Of a stretch of DNA of 64,000 bases, positions 16,301 to 33,975 are shown one piece after another. Source of the DNA: a virus. Its lineage: Duplodnaviria; Caudoviricetes. The notes beneath the pieces were generated by a model. It was not told where the DNA came from. It was given only the letters and a program-made list of their open reading frames with translations, and made no database searches. The stretch is taken from IMG/VR virus record IMGVR_UViG_3300042356_000309, positions 2,235 to 66,234 of that record, one strand, 5' to 3'. The position numbers and the translations under genes are program-made. Every line of letters begins with the position of its first letter. Position 1 is the first letter of the stretch.

Positions 16301-19300
16301 AGTTCCATCCATTGAAGTTATAGTAGCCTTACCTCCGTACACTATAATCTCATCTCCCACCTTGTAAACGTCAGCCTCTTGTTCCTTGAATGGAATGTTC
16401 TCTTCAATAGGCGTTAGCTCCTTAACTGTCTGAGCTCTCAACTGGTCACCCTTCCACTTAGATACAAGCATATCGTACCCATTGTCAGCAGCCACCTTAC
16501 TGATCCATGCAGCCTGGTAGTTAGGACTGAATGCCTGTCCAGGACGTACTTCTAAGAACTGTCTTTTAGCTTCGTCATAGAAGTTTTCTTGGTCTTCCTG
16601 TAGGTAGTATACCTTGTCTTTAGGTACAACAACAGTATGAAGTACTGGACCAACTCCAGCCTCCTTCTGACCCTCCTGTGTATAGAACTGAGCAACACCT
16701 CCAACAGAGCTTAGTGCAGCTGCCTCGTCTCTACCAGTTATCATGTTATCTCCAGATCTAGGCTTGATGGTTTCTCTCTTCTGATTAGAGTAGTGATGGA
16801 ATATATAGTTTCCGTTACCGTCTTCAGTAAGTTTGTCAGCTACTTCCTTTTGAAGAGCCTTCTGTCTTCTTGGAGCAGGTCCTTGATCTTGTATTTTAGA
16901 TGTGTTTACTCTAAGTCCTCTAACAGAAACACCAGATGTTGGAAATATCTTATTCTCTCTTTCCTTAGATGCTACAATATCATTTGTCTCAAAGTCCTCA
17001 AATACTTCTGACCAATTAAACCTATCTTTTAGTATATGAAGAGTTACTTTATTATTAGCTTTTTCAGATTGAATTGCTTTTGGATATGATTCATGCTTAT
17101 CTGAATTAACATCTTTAACCTTACCTCTTAATTCTAACACAGCATAAACTTGTCCACCTTTATCCCTTTTAACTCCTTCTTTTAGCATAGGTTCAGTAAA
17201 CATCTCAGATAATGCTTGAGTCATGTTTGCTGCGGATATAGATAGCTTTCCAGTTTTTGTAATACCCTTAAAGTATTTATTTTGAATGCCTTGAGAAAAT
17301 AATTTTCCAAATTGTTCAACAGATTTAGGGTTTGATCTTATAACATTAGCAGCTTCTTTTATTAATTCTTCAACAAAAGTTTTTCTATCCTCAAATGATG
17401 TAATATCTGGATTCAATAATTCCTTTATTCTTGATGCTAAAATATCAACAGAATCTGATTTATTTAATTTAAATTGAGTTCCTAATCCAACAAGTTTTAT
17501 TCTATATTGTTTATTTCCTTTTTTATCAAGAACTGGTTTACCATCTTTCTTTATTAATGTCTTTTTTTCTCTTGTAACTTTTGCAGCATTATTAAGCATT
17601 GTTTTTAACTGAGATGGAGTTATGGAAAAATTCTTATCAAATGCCTTAGATAAAAAGAAATCAAGAACTGAGTTAGACATCGTAGTACTTGATAATAATT
17701 TATCATAAGGAGCAGTTGTAAGACCCATATAAATAACACCACCATTTTGTTCAAATACCTTGTTTAGATCTTTAGCCATTTTATTGGCCGTTTCATCTGT
17801 ACTTGCCCAAAAATAACCATCTTCATGAAATTTAATAGGATAGAATACACCTCCTTTACCTTCTACTAATATTTCTCCATCTTTATAAATCATTCCTGAG
17901 AAAGCTGCGTCAGGTTGATGAAGGAACATATATTCACCATTAAAATCTTTTATGGATTTATTTCTAGTTATGTATCCATCATCTTCAAGTTTCTTAAACT
18001 TATTTCCATTTTTATCAAATACAAATGTAAGTTTAGATACAAAGTCAGAAAAATTAGACTGGAATCTTTTATTTGCATTTGATATTTCAGTACTAGATTC
18101 AATTTTCTTTACATCTTTTTGTTTTATAGTCTTACCCTTAGCAGTCTTTCTAGCAATAGTAGTAAGTACATCGTAAACCTCATTCCTATTGAATGGATTT
18201 AATCCAAATGATTTAGCTATTCTGTCTATCCATCTCTTGATTACATCCTTAACAGATTCTGGAGCTTCCATATAATACTCAGACAACATACCAACTAACT
18301 CGGATACCTTTTCCTCGTTCTGTATATTCTCCTCGTATTGAGATGCAAAATCATCTAAGTATTTTTTTAACTTTGGATTACTATCTATCTTCTTAGATAC
18401 AGCCTCAATCATTTTTCTTGTAGTCAAAGCTGCATTTGCTTCAGTCTTAACTGCGTTAATAAGTACTGCATGGAATACCTCATGGGCTACAGTTCTTGCG
18501 TTAGCCTGTTCTAAGTTAATGTGTATCTCTCCAGTTGCAGGATCAAAATAACCTCCAGACTCAGTATCTCCAGCAATAGCAGCAAATGAATCCCGTGTAT
18601 CGTGAACAATGAACTTTGTGTTAGGTAGTATTCTAGAAACTGCCTTAGCTGCGTTAGCAACTATCTTAGCCATTCTAGGCTTAGATATCTGAGCAGCACG
18701 ATTTTCAATCTCTACGTCAGTACCAGATATAACTGTACCTGTTGATGATTGTGAAGGAGCAGTTTGCTCAAACACGTTTGGCAACCTTCCCTCTTTTAAC
18801 GCTTTTGCAATTTCCTTGAACTGAGCTCCACTAAACTGCATAGGATTTTTACCTGTACCTCCAGTCTTTACGTTCTGAAAAGACCCAAGATCAAATAGTG
18901 ATTCTTGATCTGCTAGTCTACCAAACTCAATGGCCTGCTCTCTAGATGACTCTGGAGCCACAACGTTTAGATCGATAGACATCTCGTTAGAGTTAGGGAA
19001 CTTATAGATACCTACCTTAACAGTTTCGTTGTCACCAATCTTATCTGCGTGCTGCTCAACGAAGTCTGCAATCATTTCTGGAGTAGCTTCCTCAACAGTT
19101 GTATTAATACTAACTACTGGTACAACTAATCCTACACCGTCATAAACTGTTCCATCAAGATTAAACGTTGCCCCATCCTCTGCTTCTGGAGTTACTGCCT
19201 TTACTCTTTCTAGTTCTTGAGAAGAGTTGGTAGCAATTGTAGGTTTGTCTATAACAACTTCTTCTGCAACAGGTTGTTGCACAACTGTTTCCTCCAAAGC

Positions 19301-22300
19301 AGCTAGTTCTGCATCATATTTAGCATTTACAGCTTCTTCAATGGTTTGGTCATTGTTAACTTGATAAGTTTCTTTAAGACCATCTTCTGTATAAGTATTA
19401 AGTTCTTCTTGTCTTCTTGTTTCTATATCAGCTTTCTGAGCCTCTACATCTACTACTTGCGTCTCCTGGAGCCCACCGCCTGCGATAGTGCTATCGCCAA
19501 GATTTGTTTCTGGCTGCGTGGCTTGCCCGACTGTCCCTTCTCCTTGCCCGACTTGAGGTTGTCCTTCATTAGTTCCCTCACGTTGTACGACACCGCCTTC
19601 TGCTGTGCCTTCTTGCTGCTGTTCTGTGCTTTTCTTAATGGCATTTTTAGATATTTTTTTTAGTTCATCATTAATCTGCTCTATCCTTTCTTTCTGGCCA
19701 GCAACTAGAGCCTCATCCTTACCAGCTATCTCTTCTTCTAGTTCTTGTTTTTCTAATAATAAGCTATATGACTCTATCTTATCAGAAGTAGATAATTTAT
19801 TTGGAATAGAATCCAATAACTCTCCAGTTTTTTTAACAAATTTTATCTTTGCATCAGCTTCATCTTTAGATATTTCTCCCTTTTGAAGCAGTATACCTAC
19901 ACTTGTTATATATGCATCCCTATTTCTTACATCAGATGTATAATCATAAAATTTCTTAAACTCTTTATTTGCAGATGCAGATGCCATCCTGTTTGTTACT
20001 ATGCTTGCACCATTAGACATCGTACCAAATATAGCACCACCTGCCATTCCTAAAACTACATTTTCAGCTAATGATGATATATACTCTTTTCTACCTTCAT
20101 CAGTACTAAGATCTGGAGCATCTTTAAAATAATCTAGATTATATGCAGCATTTATAGCTGCCTTCATTCCTCCTTCAAATATAAATTGAGTTCCTTCTGT
20201 ACCTCCTTCTGCAACTGCACCAACAGTAACATCAAACGCTCCAGCCGCAATAGCCTTTCCTATGTTCTTAGATATCTCCCTTTTAATAGTTTCTTCAGTA
20301 GCATCTTTTGGTAGGCCAGCTAATGATCTGCCTATTATAGATGTTATAACTCTTGAGTTAACTGGGGCCTTCATTTGTTCAAATCCATACTTCTCCAGCT
20401 TACCCATGACAAGTCCATAAGCAAAACCGTATGCATTTTTTTCTAATATTCCCATGTTGTCAAACTCTTCTGCTGTCATTTGCTCCCTCATGTCTGCATA
20501 TGCCCCAAGTATAAATCCAACTGATCCTCCAAGAGATGACCCCAAAGTTCCTCCAAGAGACCCTATAGCTTTTTCCCATATACTCCTATCTTCAGAAGAC
20601 ATCCATTCTGGAGTTGTTTCTTCCATAAATCCAAGTGATGACATAGTTTCTACACCAAGCTTTTTAGAATCTACTATAAATCTTGAAATGTCTCCATATA
20701 CCTTATTGTTTATTTCTTCTGGAGTCATTCCTTTTTCCAACATGTTATTATATAATGTTGGTTCTACAAAATTTTTAGCATCTAATCCTAACTTAACTAG
20801 ATCCGTCTCTACATACATAATAGCTTCAGCTATTCCCATAGATGCATCCATAAAATTAGATATAAATGAACCTACAATACCACCACTTTGTTCTCTTTCA
20901 AGAGAATTTAAACCTGCTGTTTTTTCTAGGCCTATAGATAGTTTATCTAAGTTTGCAGAAGATTGCTCGTAGTTGTATTTATCCTGCTCTACCTCTATTG
21001 TCTTTTTGTCTATTTCTTCTTGAGCTTTTTGAAAATCAAACGGATAATTTTTTATTACTTCAAGATTTTCATTTGCTAGATTTAAATATGTTTTATCTTT
21101 AGTTTTATCGTATTCTTTTTGATAATAATCAGCCTCTGCCTTTTTAGATTTTAAGAAGTCCTCCTCAAATCTTACTCTGCTTATGAGTCCACCTAAATCA
21201 TTGTTTGATTTTTGATATATTTTATATGCTGAATTAGATTGTTCTTCTACACTTTTAGCAATATTCTGCCACATGTCACCTCCTAGAGATACATTCTTAT
21301 CCATCATATTTTTATATACTGATGGGTTCCTGTATATCATATCGATCATTGCTCTCTCATACTCATCTTTATTTACAGCATTGATGTCTCCGTTATTAGA
21401 GTTAAACTTTCTCTCTAATATCCTAAAGTCTTTCTCTTTATTCCAAGTATCTATTAACCAGTCAGAAATTTCTTGAGGCGTGCTGTCTAGAGAAAATTTA
21501 TTTTGTCCAGGAGAGGTTATATTATCTCCATCTATAAAGAATCCATACTTATTCCAAAGAGATGAGTACTCTCCAGAATTTATTGATTTCTTTACATCAT
21601 CATAAAAATCAATATCTAGATTAGAAAAGTATTTTTCATCATCTTTATCTACTGTAAAGTATCTCTTTTTAGTTTCTCCGTATACCTCTTTCTTTTTTTC
21701 TATTTCTTTTTCAGCTTCACTCTGAAGGTAATTCCACTCTCCCCAATAATTTTGATTATAATAAAGATATGCCTTACCCATATCTATCTCTTCACCCTCT
21801 AAGCTATACATCTTTGATCCGTCTGGACTTTTATATGTATTCTCCTGTATCCATTCTGGGAATGATGGGAATTTTTTATAAGATTTTCCAGAAATAAATT
21901 CATGAAATTTATCAACAGCAGATTTGTTTGATTCATTTATTTCTTTCTGTATATCTATCTTTGTTTTTAAGTTCTCAGTAAATCCTTTTGTACGTCTCTC
22001 TATTTCTTCAAACTTACTTCTTGCTGGATCAATAACAGCTTCAGTGAACCACTCTATTAATTTTTTTCTTGGTTTTTTAATAGATTTACCATCTAAATAA
22101 ACCGTAGCCTCCTCCATTGTTTCTTTAAACTGACCTGTTTCTGGATCATATAATGACCCAGATGTCATATAGTCTCTAGTTGAGGCATACTCTAGTTCCT
22201 TTCCTACAGGAACCATAGCAGGTATAAGCCCAGACTGTCTTAGTAAGAAGGCTGTTCTTTCAGCGTCATTGGTCAATGAATTATACTCTTGTAGTTGCTG

Positions 22301-22894
22301 AATAGCTTTAGATGATGAGTTTGGATCGTACTCCCCCTTAGCAAATTTTTGAAAATCTACTTGACCTAACTTTGCAGCATTTTGCAAGTCCATAAGCATT
22401 TTTTCTTTGGGACTCATTTCATAGTTGTCCAAAACGCCCATTTGCTTCCTCCACTCTCTATCTGCAATTTGAGAGTTCCAGTCTGTTTCTTGAAGATTAC
22501 CCTTTAGTACTTCATCTTTTTCTATAGCATTTTGTACAGGGTATAGAATATTTTCTTTGTATTCTTGATCTGGACTTTTAGTAGTTGTTGTATCTACGTT
22601 TCTTTGCAAAGACGAGGATACCGAAGGCTCTGGCATCCCCATTTCTGGTGTAGCCAATGAACCACTTGTTGGATCTTCCATTGATGGTGATACCAACTCT
22701 TCTTTTTTTTTTAATGGTGTATACTTTATGTCAAAAGTTTCAAAGTCAGTACTTTCAATACCGTCTCTAGTAAGTACACCGTGTACCTTTTTTCTGTAAA
22801 TAGGGTCATTAAGCTGGTCTTCAAACTCACCTAATGTTTTTGTGTAGTAACCTCCTTCTGATAACTTATTGTATAAATCTTCTACTAACGCCAT
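13316..22894 (-). CDS. giant polyvalent internal virion/ejection protein (3192 aa) with SAMase-like, HExxH metallopeptidase, ART-like and LPD38-like domains
   Basis: Last gene of the ejection-protein cluster; GxFxP...IHIN...HEVFH...EE, HHYS...FYT...GYD and DFNQGG...PYFNAGMQG motifs. Confidence 0.85.
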   Translation of the reverse strand: MALVEDLYNKLSEGGYYTKTLGEFEDQLNDPIYRKKVHGVLTRDGIESTDFETFDIKYTPLKKKEELVSPSMEDPTSGSLATPEMGMPEPSVSSSLQRNVDTTTTKSPDQEYKENILYPVQNAIEKDEVLKGNLQETDWNSQIADREWRKQMGVLDNYEMSPKEKMLMDLQNAAKLGQVDFQKFAKGEYDPNSSSKAIQQLQEYNSLTNDAERTAFLLRQSGLIPAMVPVGKELEYASTRDYMTSGSLYDPETGQFKETMEEATVYLDGKSIKKPRKKLIEWFTEAVIDPARSKFEEIERRTKGFTENLKTKIDIQKEINESNKSAVDKFHEFISGKSYKKFPSFPEWIQENTYKSPDGSKMYSLEGEEIDMGKAYLYYNQNYWGEWNYLQSEAEKEIEKKKEVYGETKKRYFTVDKDDEKYFSNLDIDFYDDVKKSINSGEYSSLWNKYGFFIDGDNITSPGQNKFSLDSTPQEISDWLIDTWNKEKDFRILERKFNSNNGDINAVNKDEYERAMIDMIYRNPSVYKNMMDKNVSLGGDMWQNIAKSVEEQSNSAYKIYQKSNNDLGGLISRVRFEEDFLKSKKAEADYYQKEYDKTKDKTYLNLANENLEVIKNYPFDFQKAQEEIDKKTIEVEQDKYNYEQSSANLDKLSIGLEKTAGLNSLEREQSGGIVGSFISNFMDASMGIAEAIMYVETDLVKLGLDAKNFVEPTLYNNMLEKGMTPEEINNKVYGDISRFIVDSKKLGVETMSSLGFMEETTPEWMSSEDRSIWEKAIGSLGGTLGSSLGGSVGFILGAYADMREQMTAEEFDNMGILEKNAYGFAYGLVMGKLEKYGFEQMKAPVNSRVITSIIGRSLAGLPKDATEETIKREISKNIGKAIAAGAFDVTVGAVAEGGTEGTQFIFEGGMKAAINAAYNLDYFKDAPDLSTDEGRKEYISSLAENVVLGMAGGAIFGTMSNGASIVTNRMASASANKEFKKFYDYTSDVRNRDAYITSVGILLQKGEISKDEADAKIKFVKKTGELLDSIPNKLSTSDKIESYSLLLEKQELEEEIAGKDEALVAGQKERIEQINDELKKISKNAIKKSTEQQQEGTAEGGVVQREGTNEGQPQVGQGEGTVGQATQPETNLGDSTIAGGGLQETQVVDVEAQKADIETRRQEELNTYTEDGLKETYQVNNDQTIEEAVNAKYDAELAALEETVVQQPVAEEVVIDKPTIATNSSQELERVKAVTPEAEDGATFNLDGTVYDGVGLVVPVVSINTTVEEATPEMIADFVEQHADKIGDNETVKVGIYKFPNSNEMSIDLNVVAPESSREQAIEFGRLADQESLFDLGSFQNVKTGGTGKNPMQFSGAQFKEIAKALKEGRLPNVFEQTAPSQSSTGTVISGTDVEIENRAAQISKPRMAKIVANAAKAVSRILPNTKFIVHDTRDSFAAIAGDTESGGYFDPATGEIHINLEQANARTVAHEVFHAVLINAVKTEANAALTTRKMIEAVSKKIDSNPKLKKYLDDFASQYEENIQNEEKVSELVGMLSEYYMEAPESVKDVIKRWIDRIAKSFGLNPFNRNEVYDVLTTIARKTAKGKTIKQKDVKKIESSTEISNANKRFQSNFSDFVSKLTFVFDKNGNKFKKLEDDGYITRNKSIKDFNGEYMFLHQPDAAFSGMIYKDGEILVEGKGGVFYPIKFHEDGYFWASTDETANKMAKDLNKVFEQNGGVIYMGLTTAPYDKLLSSTTMSNSVLDFFLSKAFDKNFSITPSQLKTMLNNAAKVTREKKTLIKKDGKPVLDKKGNKQYRIKLVGLGTQFKLNKSDSVDILASRIKELLNPDITSFEDRKTFVEELIKEAANVIRSNPKSVEQFGKLFSQGIQNKYFKGITKTGKLSISAANMTQALSEMFTEPMLKEGVKRDKGGQVYAVLELRGKVKDVNSDKHESYPKAIQSEKANNKVTLHILKDRFNWSEVFEDFETNDIVASKERENKIFPTSGVSVRGLRVNTSKIQDQGPAPRRQKALQKEVADKLTEDGNGNYIFHHYSNQKRETIKPRSGDNMITGRDEAAALSSVGGVAQFYTQEGQKEAGVGPVLHTVVVPKDKVYYLQEDQENFYDEAKRQFLEVRPGQAFSPNYQAAWISKVAADNGYDMLVSKWKGDQLRAQTVKELTPIEENIPFKEQEADVYKVGDEIIVYGGKATITSMDGTVATFKGERMSGSIDTKRNATSITKARRQKGLKNVKALDILDENKKYIKERTKKTKAKDLAEEYIQKFEDRQADAKRALRNIAGVYSKRALNLLVNKAGASGWANERFKEAQKKIYGRKLNRNLLLSVKDMDLLNAMIYAKRIIAINKNRAERGMKPYKGMDGYSTAEAQADLQEIKNAIGDKKYADFENRTNEYFKVYEENLRNAFKSGRINEETYNTLKDIEYSPIKTLKYIIGEDQFTSTEIDTMSKTLGIKSDDIKRLGDENENAFASDTRWLMMMAINASERKNFENKLLNAINDSIENATDIEKQALSEIFLDNPVIGKTKTGSLIYKYDKNKIPLGYKEVIFYKKGVKRKMIVKNKYADQILDLNNVPDTLKQIGKLSGGSLLRFFATSGNPFFILGNVPADFSNILFLSDVYGKMPIIGKFYGAPHLAFDFVKNFLRASFGIKYKNIKREYLEHGGAMDYMSSDGIRQLLSKEYTIEVFGLPVLSLPRKTLVTYAKVVSYLGEKSEEAFRLSVYEKTKSDLIKKYKKENNGLDPQGQDLEDIMHDAVREAREVIDFNQGGEYAKNIDAVMPYFNAGMQGLRRTREYATKNPYGFASNMIQGSIMSAGIAAYSISVLLQRACAEAEDEDDCNKKMMDAINSIPEYEKANYHIIFTGEKDENGEYKYKRIKKLPGLSVITTFAEQMITKFFFSSRGVDYDVNNDIFWNTVKSSVPFYPENVLGKNPLVAAGIAYGLNYDTFRGEKIFKQQRGWENRVISPEYEGINDDNVNSLFKTIAPIFGMSPIRTQAMVEKIITSESTNPTLSILYAVANGMFDDKTDMGEAFSIATDEFIKNTSRKLVRSTNKNLLDKKEQDRIAEMLIEENDEEYYNTTKTYDDIKDIYDSGKELNVGELLDMIDERFKPVTKSELDSYYNKYNNYINNMSLDRRLLNIVFENKPKLQALYMYERYGASLDDEELDELNTIMKQTNSRISKTALIYYNENFKNK
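19453..19644 (-). CDS. nested out-of-frame small basic protein (MPL-K...KQxxAIALSxA type, DUF6496-like)
   Basis: Resembles a common stand-alone phage gene; A-rich start context AAAAAAATATCTAAAAATG; the host frame is a low-complexity linker here. Confidence 0.7.
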   Translation of the reverse strand: MPLRKAQNSSKKAQQKAVSYNVRELMKDNLKSGKEKGQSGKPRSQKQILAIALSQAVGSRRRK

Positions 22895-24403: not shown

Positions 24404-25054
24404 TTAAGATGTAAATCCTTTATTTATCATCATAGGCTTGAAGAATTGCTCTAATGCCTTTCTTTTATCTTTATTTAAAGTTTGTGGATTTAATGATTTA
24501 TATAAATCAGTACTTGAGTATATATCTCCACCCAAACCTATTCCAGACTCAATAGCTCCAGTTATAGCTAAATTTTTTCTATCCTGTGCATCAGCAGCTG
24601 CCTGTTGAGCACCAGTTAGTTCAGCAGTATACATAGTCTCCTCTCTTTGAGCTTTTCTTTGCTCTATCTCTGCCTTGTTTTGAGCTTGATATAAATCTCT
24701 TTGTAGTTTAGTTTCTCCAAACTGTGATGCTACGTTTAATGCCTGTTCATTTGTTTGGGCAAGAATATTTCCAATACCTCCAATAACCCCTTCAGAACCT
24801 GCCCCTTTAGATGCCTCAATAGCTCCTTTTGCAGCTCTGTCTGTAGTTTGTTGAGCCAACTCATAACCTAGAGTAGGTACTTGGACACTTCCAAATGCAT
24901 CAAGTTCTTTGATTCCAGTTAATTTAGCAGCTGCTTGAGCAGCCGCTTTCTGAGCTTGCTCTCTTGCCTTTTGAGCTTTTATAGCTTGTGCTACATTTAG
25001 ACCTAGGCCTGCTACTCCTCCTGCTACCGCCATAGTTGTTGTTACCGCTGCCAT
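24404..25054 (-). CDS. internal virion/ejection protein (Ala/Gly/Gln-rich, T7 gp14-like position)
   Basis: Hydrophobic Gly/Ala N-terminus and coiled coil; synteny. Confidence 0.7.
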   Translation of the reverse strand: MAAVTTTMAVAGGVAGLGLNVAQAIKAQKAREQAQKAAAQAAAKLTGIKELDAFGSVQVPTLGYELAQQTTDRAAKGAIEASKGAGSEGVIGGIGNILAQTNEQALNVASQFGETKLQRDLYQAQNKAEIEQRKAQREETMYTAELTGAQQAAADAQDRKNLAITGAIESGIGLGGDIYSSTDLYKSLNPQTLNKDKRKALEQFFKPMMINKGFTS

Positions 25055-25085
25055 CTTATTTTTTATTATTCAAAGTTATTAAAAA

Positions 25086-25496
25086 TTATTGTAATATCTT
25101 AATCATTTCTTGACAATTTTTATCACCAGATAAAAATCCACACTCTACGTACCTGTCAACTAAATGCTTGTTCTTTAGTGACGTATATATGTACTTATAC
25201 CCCTCCTGCTCTACGTATATAGATAGAACGTTTATCAGCATGTTCAGTGCCTCCTTACGGTCTGCCCTGTTCTTGTAGTTAGGGTTTGAAACTATGTACT
25301 CTATCCAAGCTGTCTTGGAGTTTGTGAAGTACACAAACCCAGCACATATATGCTCTCCACCCTTAGACACCATTATACCTCCAGCACCGTTCTGAGGGAG
25401 CATATCCCTGCTAGGTGCAGTCCATCTCCACTGCTCCCACCAACCCTTAAGGATGGTATCGTAGTCATCTTCTTTTAGATATCTAACCTCCATCAT
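25086..25496 (-). CDS. GNAT-fold acetyltransferase-like virion assembly protein
   Basis: R-x-L...D pattern and ICAGFVY, WIEYIVSNP, Y...GF motifs; usual position before the ejection genes. Confidence 0.7.
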   Translation of the reverse strand: MMEVRYLKEDDYDTILKGWWEQWRWTAPSRDMLPQNGAGGIMVSKGGEHICAGFVYFTNSKTAWIEYIVSNPNYKNRADRKEALNMLINVLSIYVEQEGYKYIYTSLKNKHLVDRYVECGFLSGDKNCQEMIKILQ

Positions 25497-26239
25497 GGAT
25501 AACTTTTAAATACTGAAGACTCTATAGAGAATAGCTCAAACTGTGAAGTAGACTTAGGCGTGTTAATTGTAAGCTCTACCTGCATGTAGTACCCCCTAAG
25601 TCCGTAAGACTCAACCATATTGTTTTTAGCTATAAGTATATACATACCGTAAAAAAGAGGAGGCCCAACTAATGACGAAAAACTAATAGTGCTCGATGAA
25701 ACATTAATAGCCTGTCCTAGATAAACTAACTGTCCTAATCCATCAAGTGTATAAACCCTGTCAGTTACAGAAACTTTATTTTCTATTTCATATGAAAAAC
25801 TCATAGAAAGTGATGTAAAGGATGTTAAAGCTCCAACTCCCTGTACTGATAATGAAGCTGTGTCAACAGTATTGTCGTCTGGCCTTCTAATAAATGCGTA
25901 CCACTCACCCTCCTTAGCCTTGAAGTAGCTATCATCAATAATACCTATCTCTAGATCTGTAAGTAAATCAGCGTCCCAAGACTTGTCACTGTCAATAACT
26001 AGCGTCTTAAACATCTTTATCTCCGTAGGACTTTCATTTAATACAGTCTTTATAGAAGATGGATACTGAGTTCCGTAGAAAGTATTTCTAGATACGTTTG
26101 TATCGTGCTTGTATAGATTTCCATCACTCCATGTATAGAAAGTATTATTCATACCAATCATCCAGTCTGGTATGAACGCCCACCTAGAGGTCCATCCGCT
26201 GGACATTGTAGAGTATGTAAGTGTAACAGGAGGATTCAT
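25493..26239 (-). CDS. tail nozzle/stabilization protein, C-terminal-type module
   Basis: TLTYS...GWTS, KxFKTL, KEGEWYAFI, GLRGYY and ELFS motifs. Confidence 0.65.
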   Translation of the reverse strand: MNPPVTLTYSTMSSGWTSRWAFIPDWMIGMNNTFYTWSDGNLYKHDTNVSRNTFYGTQYPSSIKTVLNESPTEIKMFKTLVIDSDKSWDADLLTDLEIGIIDDSYFKAKEGEWYAFIRRPDDNTVDTASLSVQGVGALTSFTSLSMSFSYEIENKVSVTDRVYTLDGLGQLVYLGQAINVSSSTISFSSLVGPPLFYGMYILIAKNNMVESYGLRGYYMQVELTINTPKSTSQFELFSIESSVFKSYP

Positions 26240-26258
26240 ATTTGCAAAGGTACTAAAA

Positions 26259-27176
26259 TTACACCAAACAGCTATCGATAGATTTCATAAAGTTATAGTA
26301 GTTGTAAGAACACCTATCTTTATTAACGTCAATCTCTTCATTAAACGGGTACGAGTCTATGTAGTTTGCCTTAAAGAACATACCCTGTTTCTCGTCCTGT
26401 ACCCCAGCATTATGGAAGAAGTAGTGCGTGTCCCAGCTAGATATTGGGCACGTTGCCCAACAAAAATCAAACTCATCTGGAACCCTTACCTCATGACCAA
26501 ACTTCCATGCCGTCCATAGTTCTGACCACATAGACGCAGTCCATACCTGTATGCCGTATGGATCACCTTCCTTCTTAAGATTTGTTAACTTAACAAGTTC
26601 ATCGTATAGGTTTCTAGAGTTCTTGTAAACCTCAGCCCAGTATACGTGATCAATGTTCTTCATTAGTTTCTGAGCACCACCAGAGTTATCTTGATTATCC
26701 TCAACTAGTTTCCTGTCAACACCGATAACCTCACACATCTTGTTTAGAACATCCTCTGACTTACTCTTTATATAGTTCGCTCCTATATAGCTGATCGTGT
26801 CACTGAAGTACCACGTGTCGTCATTAAGGTATGGGCTAAAGTCGAAGTACTTGGTAAACAAGAAGTCGCAGTCATGGAAGAATATAGCGTCATCCTTAAG
26901 GTACGGATGTTCTCTAAAGTGCTGCTCCAACATATACGACTGTATCGCTGGAGGATAGTTACACTCTCCCATATTGTCTTCATAGAAGAAGAATCTTACG
27001 TATGGGAACTTGGCCTGTATCTTTCTCCAAGACTCTGGAATCTCTTCCATATAACAGGCCACCACATCTATATCATTACCACTGTATCCTAGAGATAGGA
27101 AGTTGTGTAGATAAACCTCAACCTGCCAAGCATAGTAATCAATAGCTGGTTGAGCAGAAAGAAATCTTAAACGCAT
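26259..27176 (-). CDS. GT-A glycosyltransferase resembling peptide O-glycosyltransferases (HPAT/SGT1-like)
   Basis: YYxWQ, Y-P-x-I, FFHDCDFLF (DxD), WTAxMW and HNAG motifs. Confidence 0.7.
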   Translation of the reverse strand: MRLRFLSAQPAIDYYAWQVEVYLHNFLSLGYSGNDIDVVACYMEEIPESWRKIQAKFPYVRFFFYEDNMGECNYPPAIQSYMLEQHFREHPYLKDDAIFFHDCDFLFTKYFDFSPYLNDDTWYFSDTISYIGANYIKSKSEDVLNKMCEVIGVDRKLVEDNQDNSGGAQKLMKNIDHVYWAEVYKNSRNLYDELVKLTNLKKEGDPYGIQVWTASMWSELWTAWKFGHEVRVPDEFDFCWATCPISSWDTHYFFHNAGVQDEKQGMFFKANYIDSYPFNEEIDVNKDRCSYNYYNFMKSIDSCLV

Positions 27177-30031
27177 AAAGTACTATTTCCTGTCCAATTA
27201 GTTCCGTCCCACTCGTATGCAACTGTAGTAGCTAACTGCAAGTAATAGTTTGCAGGAGCCAATACATATACACCTAAAACATATTCGTATATACTATTAG
27301 TATATACTCCAACTGTACCATCTATAAAGAACTCACCTATAGGTGACTCGCATATAGTGTCAGCATCACCATGTCTAAAGTATGAACTTGTAGGAGGTGC
27401 AGCAGTTGTTGTAGTTGTAGTAGTCGTAGTAGTAGTCGTAGTAGTAGTTGTAGTTGTAGTCGTTGTTGTGATACCTGTACAGTCCACACAGTTGTCATAC
27501 GTAAATAACACACTAGATACAGCTACCCCTGGAGATGCTGAGCCAAGTATTGTATAACATACATTATTAGCGCACTTAACTACCTCACCTGGAGATAGTG
27601 TACTAAACGACTGATGTGAAATTAAAACTGTTGCTCCTGCAACACATACTCTTGCTAAATAATATGATGTAGGCAGCGTAGTAGTTGTAGTAGTTGTAGT
27701 AACTCCAGAACAAGCAACAATCAATAGAACCTGTCCAGTACTTGCAACCTGCATGGCGTATGCCGCTCCATCAAAGAAGTAGTACCACCCATTGCCACCA
27801 GCAAGTGGAATAGTTCCAATAGAGTTTGTATATACAAAGTCATTTACAACTGGATACGGATTAGTTCCATTATGATAGTAAGTTGAAAGTGGACCAGTAG
27901 AGTTAGCACAGGCATCGTAAGATGAAAGCTGTCTATCTGGATCCATACTAAACGCAGTAAATACTGGAGCAGTCGTTGTTGTGGTTGTGGTTGTAGTTGT
28001 TGTAATATTTAAACATGTGGCACAGTCTCCATACGGACCAACAGTATTATCTATTAAAACATATGGATACGAAGCTGTAGTTGTTGCTGTTATCTCCCAA
28101 CAGTTTCCATCAGTTGTTTTAACATAGTCTCCAACAATAAATCCACTAGTTGTTGTGTCTACTAGTGTAGCTATAACTAAACCATCTGGACACAATGTAG
28201 CTGTAAACCAGTCACCAGTTGGAAGTGTAGTAGTTGTAGTAGTAGTTGTAGTTGACGTTGTTGTCGTAGTAGATACTGGGCACTCGTTCTTGTCACATAC
28301 TGTTCCAGTTTCACAAACCTTTATTGAGTATGTAGAGTGATCAATCTTATACCATTGGCTGCCACCCATAAACTTTGTAGTGGCCTTGAAGTCAACATAT
28401 ATGTTATCATTTATATCTGGAACCCTTCCATTACCATCGTGATATAATAAAGTGTATATTGGTGACACAGCGCAAGCTGCATCTCCAGTATCCCCAAAGT
28501 TTTCTACATCTATAGCGAACGGAGTAAGTTTTATTCCAGTTTCTACTGTTATATTTATAGTTTTTGGATCTCCATATCCTAAACAATTTGAAGCTCTTAA
28601 CGTAATATCATAAGAACATGCCTCCTCTGGAGTTCCAAATATCTCTCCAGTCGTATAGTTAAACGACAATCCCTTTGGAAGATAGAAATCTAAGCATGCC
28701 TTATTAAAAGTATATGTACCGTTACCAAGAACAAGAGTAGGTGTAGTGCTAGAGCAGGTTGTTATACTTTCACTGTTCAGTGTTCCAACCGTTATTCTTT
28801 TATTATTACCGTAGCAGTCAACAATATCAAATATAGATCCAGTGTCTCCAGATGTAAATGTATACGAATCACAAGACCCTAACACTCTCCATTCAGTTGG
28901 ATTGTTACTTGCCTGCATAGGAACGTTGATAAAATTTCCTTGAGTAATTACAATGTCCTCTTGAAATATAAATGGAACAGCATACTCTAAGCAGTCACAT
29001 CCTGCAAATGCATTTACAACTCCATTCTCTCCAACTAGCCCATACAATCCACCAGATACTGGAGGTACAGCCATAGACACATCACTTATAAGGTGATACG
29101 AATTATTACCGTTGTATGGACTAAGTCCTGTAGAGTCTGTAAATATCTGATCTCCAGTTACTGGATACAGACCTAATCCATTATGATACATAGCAACGTT
29201 TGCTGTTTGCGAACAAACATTACTAGGTTCTCCATCAGTAGTATCTATATAGAACGTCTTAAGGTACGGGTCAATCCTTGATATGTTCCAAGAAGAATTA
29301 GCAAGAGGAGAGTGTACGTATAGCACAGACTCATCATCTGTAGATGCAGACTTAAAGAACTCTATAGAACCAGATCCGTTATCAACTAGTCCATCATAAG
29401 GAAAAACAAGATTAATATCAGAAGGACTTATTCCAGCAGATATTAAATTATTATAGTTTGCCAGTGTATTTAGACCTACATAACCAGTGTCTTGAATAAC
29501 CCTATCGTTATAGCTAAGTATATACCTAACTGGCTTTAATACTGTATTATAGTTTACTCCAGATATACCTCTCTCGTCTGGGAAAGGAATATTTATATAC
29601 CTCTCTGTAGCTGCGCCAGAGTATGATGCGTATCCAGAAGTAAGACTATCTGTATAGTCCCATATAAGGTATAGATTTTCGTAGTTATTAGGGTTGTTAA
29701 ATACAAACGAACCCTCATACTTTCCAGCCATCAATACCATAGGTATCTCTGTTGCTAGAGATATAATTATATCCTTTTGAGTGTCATCGTAAAGTACGTC
29801 AGACACTAGGTAGTACACCTTATTATTAAGAGATGGTTCTAAATCCTTTATAAAAGAAGACTTATCTATTGGCACATAAACCTTTATAGTGGCTCCGTCA
29901 TAAGGTATGTAGCCTATACCTCCCTCACCAGTTAACTCGTTAAATAGAGCTATCTCGTTTGCCTCTAGTGATACACCGTTTATCTTAAACTCTGAACTTC
30001 CTGTATACTGAAAACTCTGATTTGTATTCAT
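27167..30031 (-). CDS. modular tail fibre/appendage protein with Cys-rich repeats, a putative Ig domain and four poly-Thr linkers
   Basis: Three YHxG...P...D modules, two C...C...CxxC modules, LPxGLSF...GEIxGTP and Thr tracts. Confidence 0.75.
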   Translation of the reverse strand: MNTNQSFQYTGSSEFKINGVSLEANEIALFNELTGEGGIGYIPYDGATIKVYVPIDKSSFIKDLEPSLNNKVYYLVSDVLYDDTQKDIIISLATEIPMVLMAGKYEGSFVFNNPNNYENLYLIWDYTDSLTSGYASYSGAATERYINIPFPDERGISGVNYNTVLKPVRYILSYNDRVIQDTGYVGLNTLANYNNLISAGISPSDINLVFPYDGLVDNGSGSIEFFKSASTDDESVLYVHSPLANSSWNISRIDPYLKTFYIDTTDGEPSNVCSQTANVAMYHNGLGLYPVTGDQIFTDSTGLSPYNGNNSYHLISDVSMAVPPVSGGLYGLVGENGVVNAFAGCDCLEYAVPFIFQEDIVITQGNFINVPMQASNNPTEWRVLGSCDSYTFTSGDTGSIFDIVDCYGNNKRITVGTLNSESITTCSSTTPTLVLGNGTYTFNKACLDFYLPKGLSFNYTTGEIFGTPEEACSYDITLRASNCLGYGDPKTINITVETGIKLTPFAIDVENFGDTGDAACAVSPIYTLLYHDGNGRVPDINDNIYVDFKATTKFMGGSQWYKIDHSTYSIKVCETGTVCDKNECPVSTTTTTSTTTTTTTTTLPTGDWFTATLCPDGLVIATLVDTTTSGFIVGDYVKTTDGNCWEITATTTASYPYVLIDNTVGPYGDCATCLNITTTTTTTTTTTAPVFTAFSMDPDRQLSSYDACANSTGPLSTYYHNGTNPYPVVNDFVYTNSIGTIPLAGGNGWYYFFDGAAYAMQVASTGQVLLIVACSGVTTTTTTTTLPTSYYLARVCVAGATVLISHQSFSTLSPGEVVKCANNVCYTILGSASPGVAVSSVLFTYDNCVDCTGITTTTTTTTTTTTTTTTTTTTTTAAPPTSSYFRHGDADTICESPIGEFFIDGTVGVYTNSIYEYVLGVYVLAPANYYLQLATTVAYEWDGTNWTGNSTLCV
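27404..28270 (-). repeat. four (ACN)n poly-threonine tracts near 27404-27469, 27677-27700, 27971-28003 and 28225-28270
   Basis: Direct reading; mixed ACT/ACA/ACG/ACC codons; the longest is about 22 Thr. Confidence 0.95.
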
Positions 30032-33000
30032 TATTTAATCAGTTTATTATTTCTTACTATGGTAACTACATTTAACCCTTTGCTTCTAGCCTGCTTCAAT
30101 GTAAAGCTAACAGTTTTTCCGCAATAAGTAACAACAAATCCCATACTTCTTACTACTCCAGTTGTATTCTGTGAAACCTGTGCAGATATTACAGCGTCAC
30201 CTGTCCCAGCAGATATAAATCCAGTAGCCCAGTTTGTACCAAATCCAAGGTCAGTAACACTAATCGTCCAAGATACATCTGTTGTTATCCTAAATAGTTC
30301 GACTAAGTTACCAAAAGTTCCATTAACATTTATAATTCTTTCTGTTCTATTTATCGACAATTTACAACCAAGTATACTTATGTTGTTTGAAGACAGTGTA
30401 TACAAATGATTATGAGGGTCGTAGCATCCTATCTTCTGAGTATCACCGTAGTTCTGCATCATGTCTATGAAGTAGTCCTTCATACCGTTTGCAGATATTT
30501 CAGCTATCTGATTTCCTGCCATCTGAAGAACTGCACCTCTGTTTGCATCTGTAAAGAATATATCGTCACCCCACATTGCAAAAGACTCTGGGTTTCTGCT
30601 TATACCATACTCACCTGGAAACGCTATCTGTGTTCCCAATACCTGTGGTATTGATACTATCTGCCCACCTCCAGCAGAATCTGATAGTAGGTTCTTTTCA
30701 TAAAGAACAGAGCTCACCTTGTTTTCTTGGAAAACAAGAACGTCTGTATCTCTAGCATGCATCTTCTGTATTGATCCAAACTCCCCATCAAGATACTTGA
30801 AGTTAGCTATTGAAAGATTAAACTCGTTCAATGAGTTTATGCCTGTGTTTTCTCCAAATATACCACTATAACATATAGCGTTTCTACTAACCTTCTGCTC
30901 GTATCCATCTACAGTCGTTGTAGCTCTTGGGCTATACTTTAGTGTAGCTGCGTTCCAGTCATCTCTTATTCTATAGGTCTCAAGACCATTTGCGTATGAC
31001 CACGCATTGAAGTCAGAGTTTATACTGTATAACGGATTGTTTATCTTTATAACTGCTGGCTGAACAGCTGTTTGGTTCTGATCTATCTGATCATAGCTTG
31101 CTGCTCCTGCAAGAATTTCTGGAGGAGACAGAGCAACATAAGCAAAGTTTATAACAACACTGTACGGACTTGGCACAAATAGAATCTCATAATATCCAGA
31201 AGGTATTACCACACCGACTGTACTTACAGCTGACCTTACAAATATATACTCCCCAACAACAAAGTTATGCATCATATCTGTTGATGTAGGAGAGTTTTGT
31301 GAAACTGGACCTAGAACTGTTTTATTGTTTAGAGGTATACCTGTTATAGATGTACCTGTACTAACAAACTGATTGTAGTTTGCATACTGCCAAACAACCT
31401 CATGCCTTCCAGCCTTTAGTCTGTACGTTCTAGATAGCTCGTGATAGATATCTGTCTCTGATTCATCTGGAACTGTCTCCGCAATGATCTGATTTGATAG
31501 GTGTCTAATATATATACTAGCAGACATTCTGTTTGTAACTCCATTAACGTTGCTTCCAGATATAATCATATATACTGGATAATTTAAAAAGTTTGGAACA
31601 TTTGTTAAAAATGAATCTAGTTCTATATTTGATAGTGGAGTCCCAGATGTTGTTGTTTGAAAATTACCACCCCTTCTAAAAGAAACAGCCTTAGCTCCTA
31701 ATGCGTTTCCATTAACATCTGTATATTGAAAATCAATATATGCTCCAGACTCAACAAACCACTCCTCTATATTTTGATATGTGCTATTACTATAAAATAC
31801 CTGTGGAATATTACTAGCATTTGGATTTTCAGTCTCATTGTAATTTATCTCTATAACATCTCCTGGATATATTATTACATCAGTAGAAATGTTTGGAGTA
31901 ATTGCGCACTGTGGCAAATCATTTGCATCATATACTCCCTTTCCTCCAAAATAATTTAAAGTTGGATTATTATATACAGACCTTATACTAGTTTTCCATA
32001 CATCTCCTACGGAAGGTTGAGAATTCCATATTATATAAAAATTCTGACCATATTGAGATCCTATATTAATAGGAAACGGAACTCCTAATGATATTGTATA
32101 GTTTCCGTTCCACTGTCCACTTGAAGTTATATCTGTTGTCCATCTAAATTCCGTACTACTAACAACCTCTATAGTTATCCTATAATCATTATTTAATACT
32201 GGTACATTATTAGCTGGTACTAACGGTAGCGATACATCTTGAGTTAATGATAATGCGTTACCATTATTTTCTCCATAGTATATTGGATTCTCAACAAAAT
32301 TAGTATTTTGAGAGGATTGAGCTACAGATCCTCCTTCATACCCATATGCTGCATGCCAATAAATTTGAACCCCAACATTTGAATTAAGTTCTGTAGGTGA
32401 GTCAACCTTTATCTTAAAGTATAGACCTGCCTGTGCTCCAGCAATTCCCTCAAATCCTGCTGGCTGCATATTTAACTCTAACACCTTATATTTCTTGTTT
32501 GAGTATGTAGGTCCAGATGAATCAGACTTAAATATAACATACTTGCCTACAGGAACTTTATCTCTGTCAGACTCGTGTATCAAGAAATATCTAAACTGAT
32601 TCTTAGTATAGAAGTATATAGGGAACATATTATAGTACTGTCCCTTTGCCTGCTTTATTACTAACCTATAACTTGTTGCCCATGTAGGAGCATTGTTATA
32701 TATGCTTGCTATTAAACTGTTACCTTTATCTGATTGCGTTGGTGGTATGTACACAGTATTACCGTCAGATGTAAGTGTTGTCGTTGATCTACCATAGTCA
32801 TCTAGGTATACTAGACCAATCTCGTAATCCCTGTCAGATCTGAATGTTTGCAGAGGACCTAAAGGAGTGGTATTATTAGTAGACAGATACTTAAGACCTA
32901 TCCTAACTGGCTCCAACACATCATAGAACTGCGTGTAGTTTCCATACATAACTCTGTTACCAACAAACTCTTGAGCCTTTGCAAGTAGTGGAACATTGTC

Positions 33001-33975
33001 AAATAATCTTGTTACTTGATCGTATGTTATTATGCTGTAAGTCTTGTTGTTGCTAAACGTAAATGTTCTAAATACATTACTTTGAATATTTTGAGCTTGC
33101 TTATTAATTGTCTCTACAATATACACGTTTAGTGCTCTTGTATCAATCATTAGTACCTGCACCTCTTTAACAAACTCGTTTCCAGTAAATACAGTTATAT
33201 TAGCCTCGTTATACCTATTAACCATTGACTTATTGTTTCCAATGTTATAGTCTAGCATGTAGTCTTTAGGCTGGAACGCAACAGATGAGAACGGAGACAT
33301 AGCACTGTACTGATTGTCTAGGTACTTATATCTGTATGCGAAGTATATAAACTTCTCCTCAATATTATTTGACTGAGAGTTATTGTTTAGTTCTAGTCTT
33401 ATCTTTGGAGAATGTAGAGGTGGAGCCAATATAACGTTTATGTCATTATCTATACGTGGGTCGTCTATTGTGTATCCACCTATACCATTCGGTCCAGACT
33501 TAACTCTTGATATGTTTATTCGTCTTGGAGGATTATAGTTGTCAGTCCAAAACAAAAATCCACTGATATAGTTAATACCAGTAACTACAAACTCTTGACT
33601 AAAGTTTAGCTTACTAGGAGTAGTTGGAGATGCCTTCATGCACTGAAGAACTCTTGTACTAGCCCCGTTTGATTGATTGTACTCAAATATACCATCAAAC
33701 TGATCGCAAGCAACGAGCCAGTAAATCAAGTTATCTCTCTCACTAGCTACAGCCCCAATAGTTTTAGCGTTAGTTATATTCTGTACACCAGATAGTGCAG
33801 ACAAACTTGCAACGTTAGTGTTTCCTAACTGATTCCTAGCTGCACCAATGTTACCATTGTCAGACGTATCAACAGTTATATTAAATGCATCAATATATAC
33901 TCCAGGAGGTATTAATCTCTCATCGAGATCTTTATTCATAATCCCTTGGAGGAACGTATTGGTAATATCTGGCAT
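30031..33975 (-). CDS. tail nozzle/stabilization protein (1314 aa) with C-terminal BACON-like domain
   Basis: MNKDLDERL, LFWTDN, FAYRYKY, GNRVMYGNY, GSIQK and YGISxNPESFA motifs; terminal SW...W...G...N...R...Q pattern. Confidence 0.75.
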   Translation of the reverse strand: MPDITNTFLQGIMNKDLDERLIPPGVYIDAFNITVDTSDNGNIGAARNQLGNTNVASLSALSGVQNITNAKTIGAVASERDNLIYWLVACDQFDGIFEYNQSNGASTRVLQCMKASPTTPSKLNFSQEFVVTGINYISGFLFWTDNYNPPRRINISRVKSGPNGIGGYTIDDPRIDNDINVILAPPLHSPKIRLELNNNSQSNNIEEKFIYFAYRYKYLDNQYSAMSPFSSVAFQPKDYMLDYNIGNNKSMVNRYNEANITVFTGNEFVKEVQVLMIDTRALNVYIVETINKQAQNIQSNVFRTFTFSNNKTYSIITYDQVTRLFDNVPLLAKAQEFVGNRVMYGNYTQFYDVLEPVRIGLKYLSTNNTTPLGPLQTFRSDRDYEIGLVYLDDYGRSTTTLTSDGNTVYIPPTQSDKGNSLIASIYNNAPTWATSYRLVIKQAKGQYYNMFPIYFYTKNQFRYFLIHESDRDKVPVGKYVIFKSDSSGPTYSNKKYKVLELNMQPAGFEGIAGAQAGLYFKIKVDSPTELNSNVGVQIYWHAAYGYEGGSVAQSSQNTNFVENPIYYGENNGNALSLTQDVSLPLVPANNVPVLNNDYRITIEVVSSTEFRWTTDITSSGQWNGNYTISLGVPFPINIGSQYGQNFYIIWNSQPSVGDVWKTSIRSVYNNPTLNYFGGKGVYDANDLPQCAITPNISTDVIIYPGDVIEINYNETENPNASNIPQVFYSNSTYQNIEEWFVESGAYIDFQYTDVNGNALGAKAVSFRRGGNFQTTTSGTPLSNIELDSFLTNVPNFLNYPVYMIISGSNVNGVTNRMSASIYIRHLSNQIIAETVPDESETDIYHELSRTYRLKAGRHEVVWQYANYNQFVSTGTSITGIPLNNKTVLGPVSQNSPTSTDMMHNFVVGEYIFVRSAVSTVGVVIPSGYYEILFVPSPYSVVINFAYVALSPPEILAGAASYDQIDQNQTAVQPAVIKINNPLYSINSDFNAWSYANGLETYRIRDDWNAATLKYSPRATTTVDGYEQKVSRNAICYSGIFGENTGINSLNEFNLSIANFKYLDGEFGSIQKMHARDTDVLVFQENKVSSVLYEKNLLSDSAGGGQIVSIPQVLGTQIAFPGEYGISRNPESFAMWGDDIFFTDANRGAVLQMAGNQIAEISANGMKDYFIDMMQNYGDTQKIGCYDPHNHLYTLSSNNISILGCKLSINRTERIINVNGTFGNLVELFRITTDVSWTISVTDLGFGTNWATGFISAGTGDAVISAQVSQNTTGVVRSMGFVVTYCGKTVSFTLKQARSKGLNVVTIVRNNKLIK

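Follow-up and report, generated by a model that had tools for sequence, protein, structure and literature searches.

A phage glycosyltransferase family encoded beside virion proteins with threonine tracts: a candidate system for virion O-glycosylation

A 64,000-nucleotide stretch of the IMG/VR virus record IMGVR_UViG_3300042356_000309 (Duplodnaviria; Caudoviricetes; positions 2,235 to 66,234), hereafter the window, belongs to a crAss-like phage and encodes a 305-amino-acid (aa) soluble GT-A protein of the family phrog_4417. In our judgement, this protein is probably a cytoplasmic phage O-glycosyltransferase that glycosylates the threonine tracts of virion proteins. The window comprises most of a complete 66,234-base record (CheckV completeness 100%). 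The gene (26259..27176, minus strand) directly follows that of a 954-aa poly-Thr "beads-on-a-string" protein (27167..30031, minus strand), the putative acceptor substrate. An earlier reading made from the letters alone (the sequence-only reading) had proposed a peptide O-glycosyltransferase coupled to a poly-Thr virion appendage. This proposal emerges as the best-supported interpretation, on the basis of the GT-A fold, a directional genomic association and selection on the tracts.

The two genes overlap by 10 nt (ATGCGTTTAA, 27167..27176, minus strand), where the stop of the 954-aa gene meets the ATG of the 305-aa gene, as the sequence-only reading had described; the overlap suggests that their translation may be coupled. 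The five motifs that it had picked out are likewise present in the 305-aa translation: YYAWQ (14–18), Tyr74-Pro75, HDCD (101–104), WTASMW (212–217) and HNAG (255–258). In a family alignment of 59 sequences, they fall in columns that are invariant or nearly so, among them Trp17, Gln18, Tyr74, Asp102, Asp104, Gln210, Trp212, Met216, Trp217, His255, Asn256, Ala257 and Gly258. Among the 59 sequences, Asp104, His255 and Gly258 are invariant, and Asp102, Asn256 and Ala257 are conserved in at least 90%. By analogy with GT-A enzymology, the Asp102-Cys103-Asp104 (DxD) motif (codons at 26865..26873, minus strand) presumably binds the metal and the nucleoside diphosphate (NDP)-sugar, and the His255-Asn-Ala-Gly258 motif (codons at 26403..26414, minus strand) presumably supplies the third metal ligand.

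Sequence searches assign the 305-aa protein to phrog_4417 of PHROGs (E 9.7e-66), which is annotated as "unknown function". No Pfam family matches it even at E ≤ 1, and NCBIfam yields nothing for it, for the 954-aa protein or for the 248-aa and 136-aa products of neighbouring genes. A PDB search with its sequence returned only insignificant matches (best E 0.04), and megablast of positions 25000–31000 against phage records returned none. When PDB was searched with the family profile, the only matches were TALE-repeat matches to a 31-residue stretch, which were rejected as spurious, and no glycosyltransferase (GT) was found. The gene is present as a single copy in the complete 66,234-base genome, where the family profile scores E 1.3e-129. 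The family contains 567 proteins at E ≤ 1e-5 in a word-indexed search, and 820 cluster representatives at E ≤ 1e-3 in an exhaustive search, 661 of them at ≤ 1e-10. Seven of 23 long representatives carry a second recognised GT domain (GT2, GT6, GT7C, Gly_transf_sug and one weak GT25); of the others, one carries radical-SAM/SPASM, two have weak other matches and 13 have no Pfam match. The radical-SAM and SPASM fusion, P0135 (658 aa), suggests further sugar or peptide modification in some lineages.

The AlphaFold2 model of the 305-aa protein, calculated from the 59-sequence alignment, has a mean predicted local distance difference test (pLDDT) value of 96.3 and a predicted template modelling (pTM) score of 0.93. 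It consists of a single Rossmann-like α/β/α GT-A domain, and the structural match spans residues 3–305. Foldseek retrieved 291 solved chains at E ≤ 0.001, and the top 50 listed are all GT-A enzymes, led by the UGGT catalytic domain, WbbM, XXYLT1, LgtC, GlyE, the blood-group enzymes GTA/GTB and glycogenin. In VIA-align, the scores were Z 14.7 for LgtC (233 residues aligned, root-mean-square deviation 3.3), 14.4 for glycogenin, 14.1 for Skp1 α-GalT, 13.9 for WbbM, 13.2 for both UGGT and LARGE1, 13.0 for GlyE and 11.4 for PBCV-1 A64R. The fold-nearest solved enzymes belong to GT8, GT24 and GT6. In the model, His101-Asp102-Cys103-Asp104 directly follows strand E97-100, and His255 of the HNAG motif lies on strand E253-255. 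The D-x-D...H metal site of LgtC and glycogenin is completed by a C-terminal His. The first element of the model is a β strand at residue 3, and a hydrophobic helix is absent from its N-terminus, so the protein is predicted to lack an N-terminal membrane anchor. We conclude from the model, with high confidence, that the 305-aa protein is a soluble GT-A glycosyltransferase. Its chemistry is probably GT8-like and retaining, as judged from its fold neighbours only; Pfam Glyco_transf_8 matches neither the 305-aa protein nor any of the 59 family members at E ≤ 1.

The fold alone does not give the acceptor, because among the neighbours LgtC modifies lipo-oligosaccharide, and proteins are the substrates of glycogenin, the Skp1 enzyme, GlyE and UGGT. 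The sequence-only reading had named a grouping with DNA- or lipopolysaccharide-modifying enzymes as the result that would speak against it; the nearest enzyme by fold is the lipo-oligosaccharide enzyme LgtC, and several of the other neighbours modify proteins. The fold comparison also bears on the chemistry of transfer. The enzyme might modify the tracts with a sugar-1-phosphate, in the manner of Stealth/N-acetylglucosamine-1-phosphotransferases, or with another nucleotide-activated group; three of the 59 family members show weak Stealth_CR2 matches (best E 0.079), and the catalytic domains of GNPTAB, CpsY and Drosophila GNPT align at Z 10.0–10.2. However, these values are 4–5 units below those of the GT8-type enzymes, the Pfam matches are far below any threshold, and the fusion partners within the family are classical GTs. 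We consider transfer of such a group very improbable.

The inferred acceptor offers a second line of evidence. The 954-aa protein contains 26 Cys residues and is the sole open reading frame (ORF) in the window with long Thr tracts, which number four and are encoded on the minus strand: a Thr/Ser tract of 16 residues (STTTTTSTTTTTTTTT, aa 587–602, 28226..28273) and Thr tracts of 11 (aa 677–687, 27971..28003), 8 (aa 778–785, 27677..27700) and 22 residues (aa 855–876, 27404..27469). The corresponding homologue columns contain 90.4% Thr and 7.5% Ser in tract 1, 96.2% and 3.4% in tract 2, 98.3% and 1.7% in tract 3, and 90.8% and 8.3% in tract 4, the last of which measures 22 to 29 residues among the homologues. 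Pooled over 22 homologues (n = 1161 cells), the columns comprise 92.9% Thr, 6.1% Ser and 0.9% other residues, at an identity to the 954-aa protein outside the tracts of 35–57% (median 44%). The tract positions are conserved, with conserved Cys residues on both sides, and the lengths drift. The Thr codons are mixed (ACT 26, ACA 20, ACG 7, ACC 2), and the longest run of the same codon is three. Eight consecutive ACN codons match 22 times in the window, always within the four tracts, against an expectation of 0.00 (0 of 100 shuffles), and Tandem Repeats Finder reports only imperfect arrays of period 3, 6, 9 or 12 (77–100% matches, scores 34–80). A microsatellite origin was rejected in view of the mixed codons and the conserved positions at 35–57% flanking identity. 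In a spacer that only had to be flexible, one would expect Gly, Pro, Ala or Asn to be tolerated too; acceptance of only Ser besides Thr fits O-linked modification. Judged by the homologue columns, the tracts are under selection for hydroxy-amino acids, and both the four tracts and the selection on the protein asserted by the sequence-only reading are borne out.

The same reading had placed the 954-aa protein in a tail module. More precisely, the tail-tip (muzzle) protein is encoded by a split gene, and the 954-aa product is its distal extension, built like beads on a string. The proximal portion of the gene encodes a 1314-aa muzzle-like virion protein (30031..33975, minus strand; phrog_14478, E 5e-183), and the gene downstream of the GT encodes a 248-aa protein (25493..26239, minus strand) with the crassvirus muzzle C-terminal domain (PF25729 crAss_MUZ_C, E 4.5e-18, 65.9 bits against a cutoff of 27). 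phrog_14478 ("virion structural protein") spans all three: the 1314-aa protein, the N-terminus of the 954-aa protein, which matches its positions 1257–1368, and the 248-aa protein. The overlap of these ranges raised the idea that the 954-aa and 248-aa proteins are paralogues, which was rejected when BLASTP found no similarity between them. In three related loci (L030, L033 and L034), the homologues of the 1314-aa and 954-aa proteins form one ORF of 2,069–2,195 aa, and in a fourth (L073) a 1,963-aa muzzle-like ORF ends in a different tract-bearing region. The order of tract protein, GT, muzzle-C protein and 136-aa protein is kept in these four loci and in L013, and the muzzle-C protein always directly follows the GT in crAss-like relatives. 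PHROGs identifies terminase, portal and virion structural proteins among the genes around the GT. The 1314-aa and 954-aa ORFs overlap by one base at 30031; a single ancestral gene seems to have been divided recently, with the translation of its two parts coupled.

The AlphaFold2 model of the 954-aa protein (23-sequence alignment, pLDDT 77.1) contains all-β domains at a pLDDT of about 80–90. Values below 50 are confined to the N-terminal ~100 residues and to residues 587–602, 677–688, 776–786 and 855–879, which correspond to the tracts. Shuffle-controlled alignments distinguish two types of bead, type A (263–350, 503–586 and 688–777; z 6.5–16) and type B (603–676 and 786–854; z 7.2), with a distinct C-terminal domain. 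Pfam recognises a He_PIG immunoglobulin (Ig) domain at aa 414–496 (E 1.3e-7), and PHROGs finds phrog_21885 three times. PDB holds no relative of the 1314-aa, 248-aa or 954-aa proteins detectable by sequence, and Foldseek matched the whole 954-aa model only to generic arrays of Ig-like or carbohydrate-binding-module-like domains (template modelling (TM) score ≤ 0.11), indicating no more than strings of β-sandwich domains. A complex prediction for the GT and residues 826–905 of the 954-aa protein scored 0.01 against a mark of 0.32, which speaks neither for nor against an interaction.

The pairing of the enzyme with Thr tracts recurs well beyond the window. A profile-guided scan of a collection of 2.9 million viral contigs revealed at least 586 stretches encoding a GT relative, from which 80 loci with flanks of up to 10 kb were kept; an ORF was scored as having a tract if any 10 consecutive residues included at least nine Thr or Ser and at least six Thr. 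A Thr-tract ORF was present in 67 of the 80 loci. The immediate upstream ORF on the same strand was tract-positive in 64 of 80 cases and the immediate downstream ORF in 0 of 78, compared with 23 of 647 other same-strand ORFs of at least 150 aa. Since 29 of the loci are close kin of the window, clusters were counted too, and 25 of 31 GT clusters (≥70% identity) were tract-positive. After masking of the tracts, the 64 upstream proteins fall into 10 families. The co-occurrence across phages that the sequence-only reading had set as a check is strong, with the tract upstream and not downstream.

In the reverse direction, 80 viral loci were chosen solely by the presence of ten consecutive ACN codons, 66 of which had a run of at least 10 Thr in an open frame, and flanks of 2 kb were inspected. 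A member of the GT family occurred within 2 kb in 7 of these 66 loci, always directly downstream. By these counts, the family is strongly enriched beside poly-Thr genes. Scanning of 16 other downstream neighbours identified two GT2 enzymes, the rest being unrelated. One poly-Thr ORF (L112:1664-2239, minus strand) contains an uninterrupted run of 101 Thr and is followed after 4 nt by a GT2-family glycosyltransferase gene (L112:503-1660, minus strand); the same arrangement occurs in L160 with a run of 19 Thr. Other GT families may fill the same role beside poly-Thr.

Relatives of the enzyme are also found in cultured phages. When 50,697 phage records were searched by tblastn with the 305-aa protein, 77 matched, comprising phages of Lactobacillus (23), Enterococcus (21), Staphylococcus (11), Lactococcus (8), Clostridium (3), Lacticaseibacillus (2) and, with one each, Chryseobacterium, Levilactobacillus and Arcanobacterium, besides six unnamed ones; none of the 77 is a Mycobacterium phage. 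Runs of at least six Thr on capsid, tail-tube or nearby proteins were present in 11 of the 14 cultured GT-positive phages examined (MA9V-3, phiFL1A, bIL285, R3.3, phiCTP1, Bacchae, P1046, 4995_1, RQ1, PT94 and 1706). According to PHROGs, the carriers are major head proteins (phrog_544 and phrog_840) and, in six families that include phrog_238, phrog_2645, phrog_6686, phrog_88 and phrog_14018, major tail or tail-tube proteins. The Lactococcus phages 1706 and P1046 bear tails of 9–10 Thr on their capsid-fusion and major tail proteins. In the siphophages among those examined, the GT gene lies directly after the capsid or tail-tube gene and before the tail-assembly genes.

The tail-tube protein of phiFL1A, which has homologues in 76 phage records, allows carriers to be compared with and without the enzyme. 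The homologues share the core ERPGE.TG(D/E), and in the GT-positive phages phiFL1A and R3.3 the chain runs on into a Thr tail. No run of four or more Thr exists in the homologues of phiGBSVK-C, Javan505, Javan311, phiJL-1, ATCC8014 and SPP1, and a family-profile search of the whole records of the first five gave 0 of 5 matches. Seven consecutive ACN codons occur in 0 of these 5 GT-negative records, as against 4 of 5 GT-positive records. GT-positive R3.3 and GT-negative phiJL-1 and ATCC8014 belong to one genus, Coetzeevirus, which indicates that tail and enzyme come and go together over short evolutionary distances.

The placement of the gene bears on the notion that the enzyme glycosylates phage DNA, producing hypermodified bases that evade restriction. 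DNA-modifying phage GTs are indeed known, according to PMC12619734. Yet the gene in the window sits within a virion structural module, apparently in translational coupling with a structural gene, and its siphophage relatives lie between capsid or tail-tube and tail-assembly genes. PHROGs flagged no base-hypermodification genes in the window, and a DNA substrate would leave the association with Thr tracts unexplained. We regard DNA as a most improbable acceptor.

Several observations weigh against glycosylation of the tracts by this family. The best single structural match, LgtC, modifies lipo-oligosaccharide and not protein. Shared ancestry makes the loci phylogenetically non-independent, 29 of the 80 being closely related to the window, and 16 of the 80 lack a tract in the immediate upstream gene. 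Among these 16, L040 has two runs of seven Thr below the threshold, L037 has a poly-Ser ORF and L045, from a record that is 4% complete, shows no tract at all; in all four near-complete GT-bearing records of the main exceptional lineage, where no tract adjoins the GT, ORFs with several tracts lie in other parts of the genome. In the reverse search, 59 of 66 poly-Thr loci had no family member within 2 kb; Thr tracts therefore do not require this GT family, and poly-Thr proteins without a nearby GT may be served by other enzymes or by none. In three of the 14 cultured phages, the Thr-rich tails are interrupted or consist of short runs only: short runs make up the Thr-rich tail of Planchet (TTTDPVTTTSTT), the Ig-domain protein upstream of the GT in 521B ends in TTV(K/A)P repeats, and two upstream proteins in LP65, whose GT match is the weakest (22.8% identity), end in TETQTQTQ tails.

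Some of these points would suit another explanation, in which the tracts are unmodified flexible linkers or tails, the GT acts on a host envelope glycan (receptor masking or serotype conversion) or on other virion sites, and the adjacency reflects shared late expression. LgtC and the O-antigen enzyme WbbM provide precedents for an envelope substrate, and the tracts without the GT and the GT loci without an adjacent tract would follow naturally. Shared late expression, however, leaves the asymmetry between 64 of 80 upstream and 0 of 78 downstream neighbours unexplained. Homologous tail-tube proteins have Thr tails or lack them in step with the presence of the GT, even among phages of a single genus, and the linker columns take only Ser besides Thr, with 0.9% other residues. 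Moreover, the hosts range from Bacteroidota to Firmicutes, whose envelopes are unrelated, and the 305-aa model has no N-terminal membrane anchor. An envelope glycan or another virion site as the target, with unmodified tracts, is judged unlikely, and O-glycosylation of the tracts themselves is the interpretation that we retain.

Three loci have further features. In L058, a second DXD glycosyltransferase gene (Gly_transf_sug, E 1.9e-9; L058:10891-11574, plus strand) follows a GT that has no tract gene beside it, and the tract proteins of this lineage are located about 28 kb away in the same genome (G001). In Lactobacillus phage 521B, Thr-Pro-rich repeats (TVAPTTVSPTTVAPTT...) also form the end of an annotated holin (L237:3721-4332, plus strand), whose gene lies upstream of that of the Ig-domain protein; the Thr-rich tails of 521B are therefore not limited to virion proteins. 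In Lactobacillus phage LP65, a gene annotated as resembling a Streptococcus thermophilus exopolysaccharide (EPS) sugar transferase (L239:9049-10062, plus strand) lies about 3 kb downstream of the GT-like gene.

If the tracts are the acceptors, the following course of events can be proposed. Late in infection, the soluble, metal-dependent 305-aa GT would work in the cytoplasm of the host, where virions are assembled and where a protein lacking both signal and anchor would stay. The donor would be a host nucleotide sugar, because PHROGs flagged no sugar-nucleotide gene in the window. The hydroxyl groups of Thr, and of some Ser, in the homopolymeric tracts of newly made virion proteins would be O-glycosylated, probably with retention. 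The acceptor in the window would be the co-translated upstream muzzle extension, in which four Thr linkers string together small Cys-containing β domains; elsewhere, members of the family would act on the Thr tails of major capsid and tail-tube proteins. Relatives that carry a second GT domain or gene would use it to extend the glycan. Dense O-glycosylation makes linkers extended, hydrated and protease-resistant, as in mucins. The likely outcome would be that the virion displays a linker or tail that is extended, densely glycosylated and mucin-like; in this phage, it would keep the beads of the muzzle at a distance from the tail tip. Possible benefits, as put forward by the sequence-only reading, would be a stiff stalk, a protease shield or a glycan bait. 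The analysis establishes the fold with its conserved residues of catalytic type, the coupling of the genes, the association across phages and the selection on Thr and Ser; we infer the transfer of sugar to Thr, the identity of the sugar, the anomeric outcome and the benefit to the phage.

Several other genes of the window were noted. Two genes downstream of the GT, a 136-aa GNAT-like protein with an N-acetyltransferase fold is encoded (25086-25496, minus strand). It has the same position in crAss-like relatives (47–59% identity), matches Pfam weakly (Acetyltransf_1, E 0.032) and has viral "N-acetyltransferase domain" clusters as its Atlas neighbours (structure TM 0.96–0.97). A 3,192-aa ORF (13316-22894, minus strand) has no PHROG match at E ≤ 1e-5 and contains an HExxH-like "HEVFH" motif; by its position, it could be a giant virion-cargo or RNA-polymerase-type crAss-like protein. 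A GroEL-like protein (53036-54631, minus strand; phrog_5725, E 8e-120) forms a chaperonin pair with a GroES-like co-chaperonin (45664-46218, minus strand; phrog_13932, E 1.3e-16). A 210-aa protein (39872-40504, minus strand) matching phrog_3704 ("ferredoxin", E 1.9e-62) is encoded between portal and capsid-region genes.

Full-text literature searching, which did not extend to subscription journals, to some 1.7 million PMC articles or to closed supplements, found nothing on this GT family, on poly-Thr in phage virions or on HPAT-like phage enzymes. Glycosylation of mycobacteriophage virions and of giant-virus capsids was known before. What is added here is a different enzyme family that lacks annotation, an acceptor signature of homopolymeric Thr, occurrence across a wide range of hosts, and the use of such tracts to link domains inside a crAss-like muzzle. 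A broader proposal, to which we give slightly less than an even chance, is that poly-Thr and the GT form a portable, self-contained cassette. A bare Thr run would be recognised on any carrier, making a capsid, tail tube, fibre or crAss muzzle mucin-like. In this proposal, the family, with its 820 representative clusters, would be a phage-borne sister of HPAT/GT95, and phages infecting Bacteroidota and Firmicutes, among them dairy, enterococcal and staphylococcal ones, would commonly O-glycosylate their virions.

Should the tracts prove to be glycosylated, virion glycosylation would be widespread in phages and not confined to mycobacteriophages, and the enzymes responsible would belong to a family left blank by Pfam and NCBIfam and labelled "unknown function" in PHROGs. 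Cryo-electron microscopy and proteomics of capsid, tail-tube and tail-tip surfaces would be read differently, with the Thr tails disordered and mass-shifted. Phage therapy and immunogenicity would be affected, as the family occurs in Enterococcus and Staphylococcus phages, and so would the biology of dairy phages of Lactococcus and Lactobacillus. In crAss-like phages, the muzzle, with which the virion contacts the host surface, would bear a mucin-like stalk. The tag and enzyme might also serve as a pair for site-directed O-glycosylation in bacteria.

Among known systems, the closest in fold are the retaining GT-A enzymes LgtC (1g9r), glycogenin (3u2t), Skp1 α-GalT (6mw8), GlyE (5gvv) and UGGT (6fsn), which align with the 305-aa protein at Z 13–14.7 over 210–246 residues. 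They share with it a DxD motif after the fourth strand and, presumably, the conserved C-terminal His, and several of these enzymes glycosylate cytoplasmic proteins or Ser-rich repeats, as does GlyE in the PsrP serine-rich-repeat pathway. The 305-aa protein differs from them in its low sequence identity (6–10%), in lacking a Glyco_transf_8 match and in its presumed acceptors.

The sequence-only reading had likened the motif order to the plant families GT95 and GT96. Plant hydroxyproline O-arabinosyltransferase (HPAT; GT95, PF23452) resembles the enzyme proposed here in acting as a peptide O-glycosyltransferase on runs of hydroxy-amino acids in extended segments. Membership in GT95 is not supported: the 305-aa protein has no PF23452 match, 2 of 59 relatives match at E ≤ 1, and at E ≤ 0.01 the only match among 73 is P0209, which falls below the cutoff (21.9 against 23.9 bits). 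P0209 is a full-length relative, and its match is collinear (residues 9–242 against profile positions 9–230 of 307), and 10% of the members of a neighbouring, mostly viral Atlas cluster carry HPAT. A distant kinship of the family to GT95 is possible on these profile matches. HPAT is a type II Golgi protein with an N-terminal membrane anchor; in contrast, the 305-aa protein has no such anchor, and its presumed acceptor is Thr and not hydroxyproline. GT96 is the peptidyl-serine galactosyltransferase family, for which no model or solved structure surfaced in searches of Pfam, NCBIfam and PDB.

PBCV-1 A64R (2p6w, Z 11.4) resembles the 305-aa protein as a virus-encoded cytoplasmic GT-A enzyme for a structural protein of the virus itself, the major capsid protein. 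In contrast, PBCV-1 is a eukaryotic giant virus without a poly-Thr acceptor, and the structural score of A64R is below that of the GT8 group. PBCV-1 glycans are atypical N-linked glycans.

The mycobacteriophages provide a parallel in biology. According to two reports, GTs encoded by Che8, Corndog and Myrna decorate the phages' own virion proteins, with glycans at the C-termini of capsid and tail-tube subunits (PMC12363180, PMC12619734), and glycan shielding is described in the former (PMC12363180). The enzyme family here differs by sequence: no Mycobacterium phage is among the 77 tblastn-matched records, and that search of phage records gave no indication of homology to Che8 gp108-110 or Corndog gp38. 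The acceptor signature also differs, being homopolymeric Thr that in the window forms internal tail-tip linkers and not C-terminal tails, and the hosts are Bacteroidota-type and Firmicutes. In the Firmicutes phages, relatives of the GT meet Thr tails at capsid and tail-tube C-termini, the same sites as in the mycobacteriophages. Both systems combine a phage-encoded GT with acceptor segments on virion proteins, putatively represented here by the muzzle extension and by the Thr-tailed head and tail proteins.

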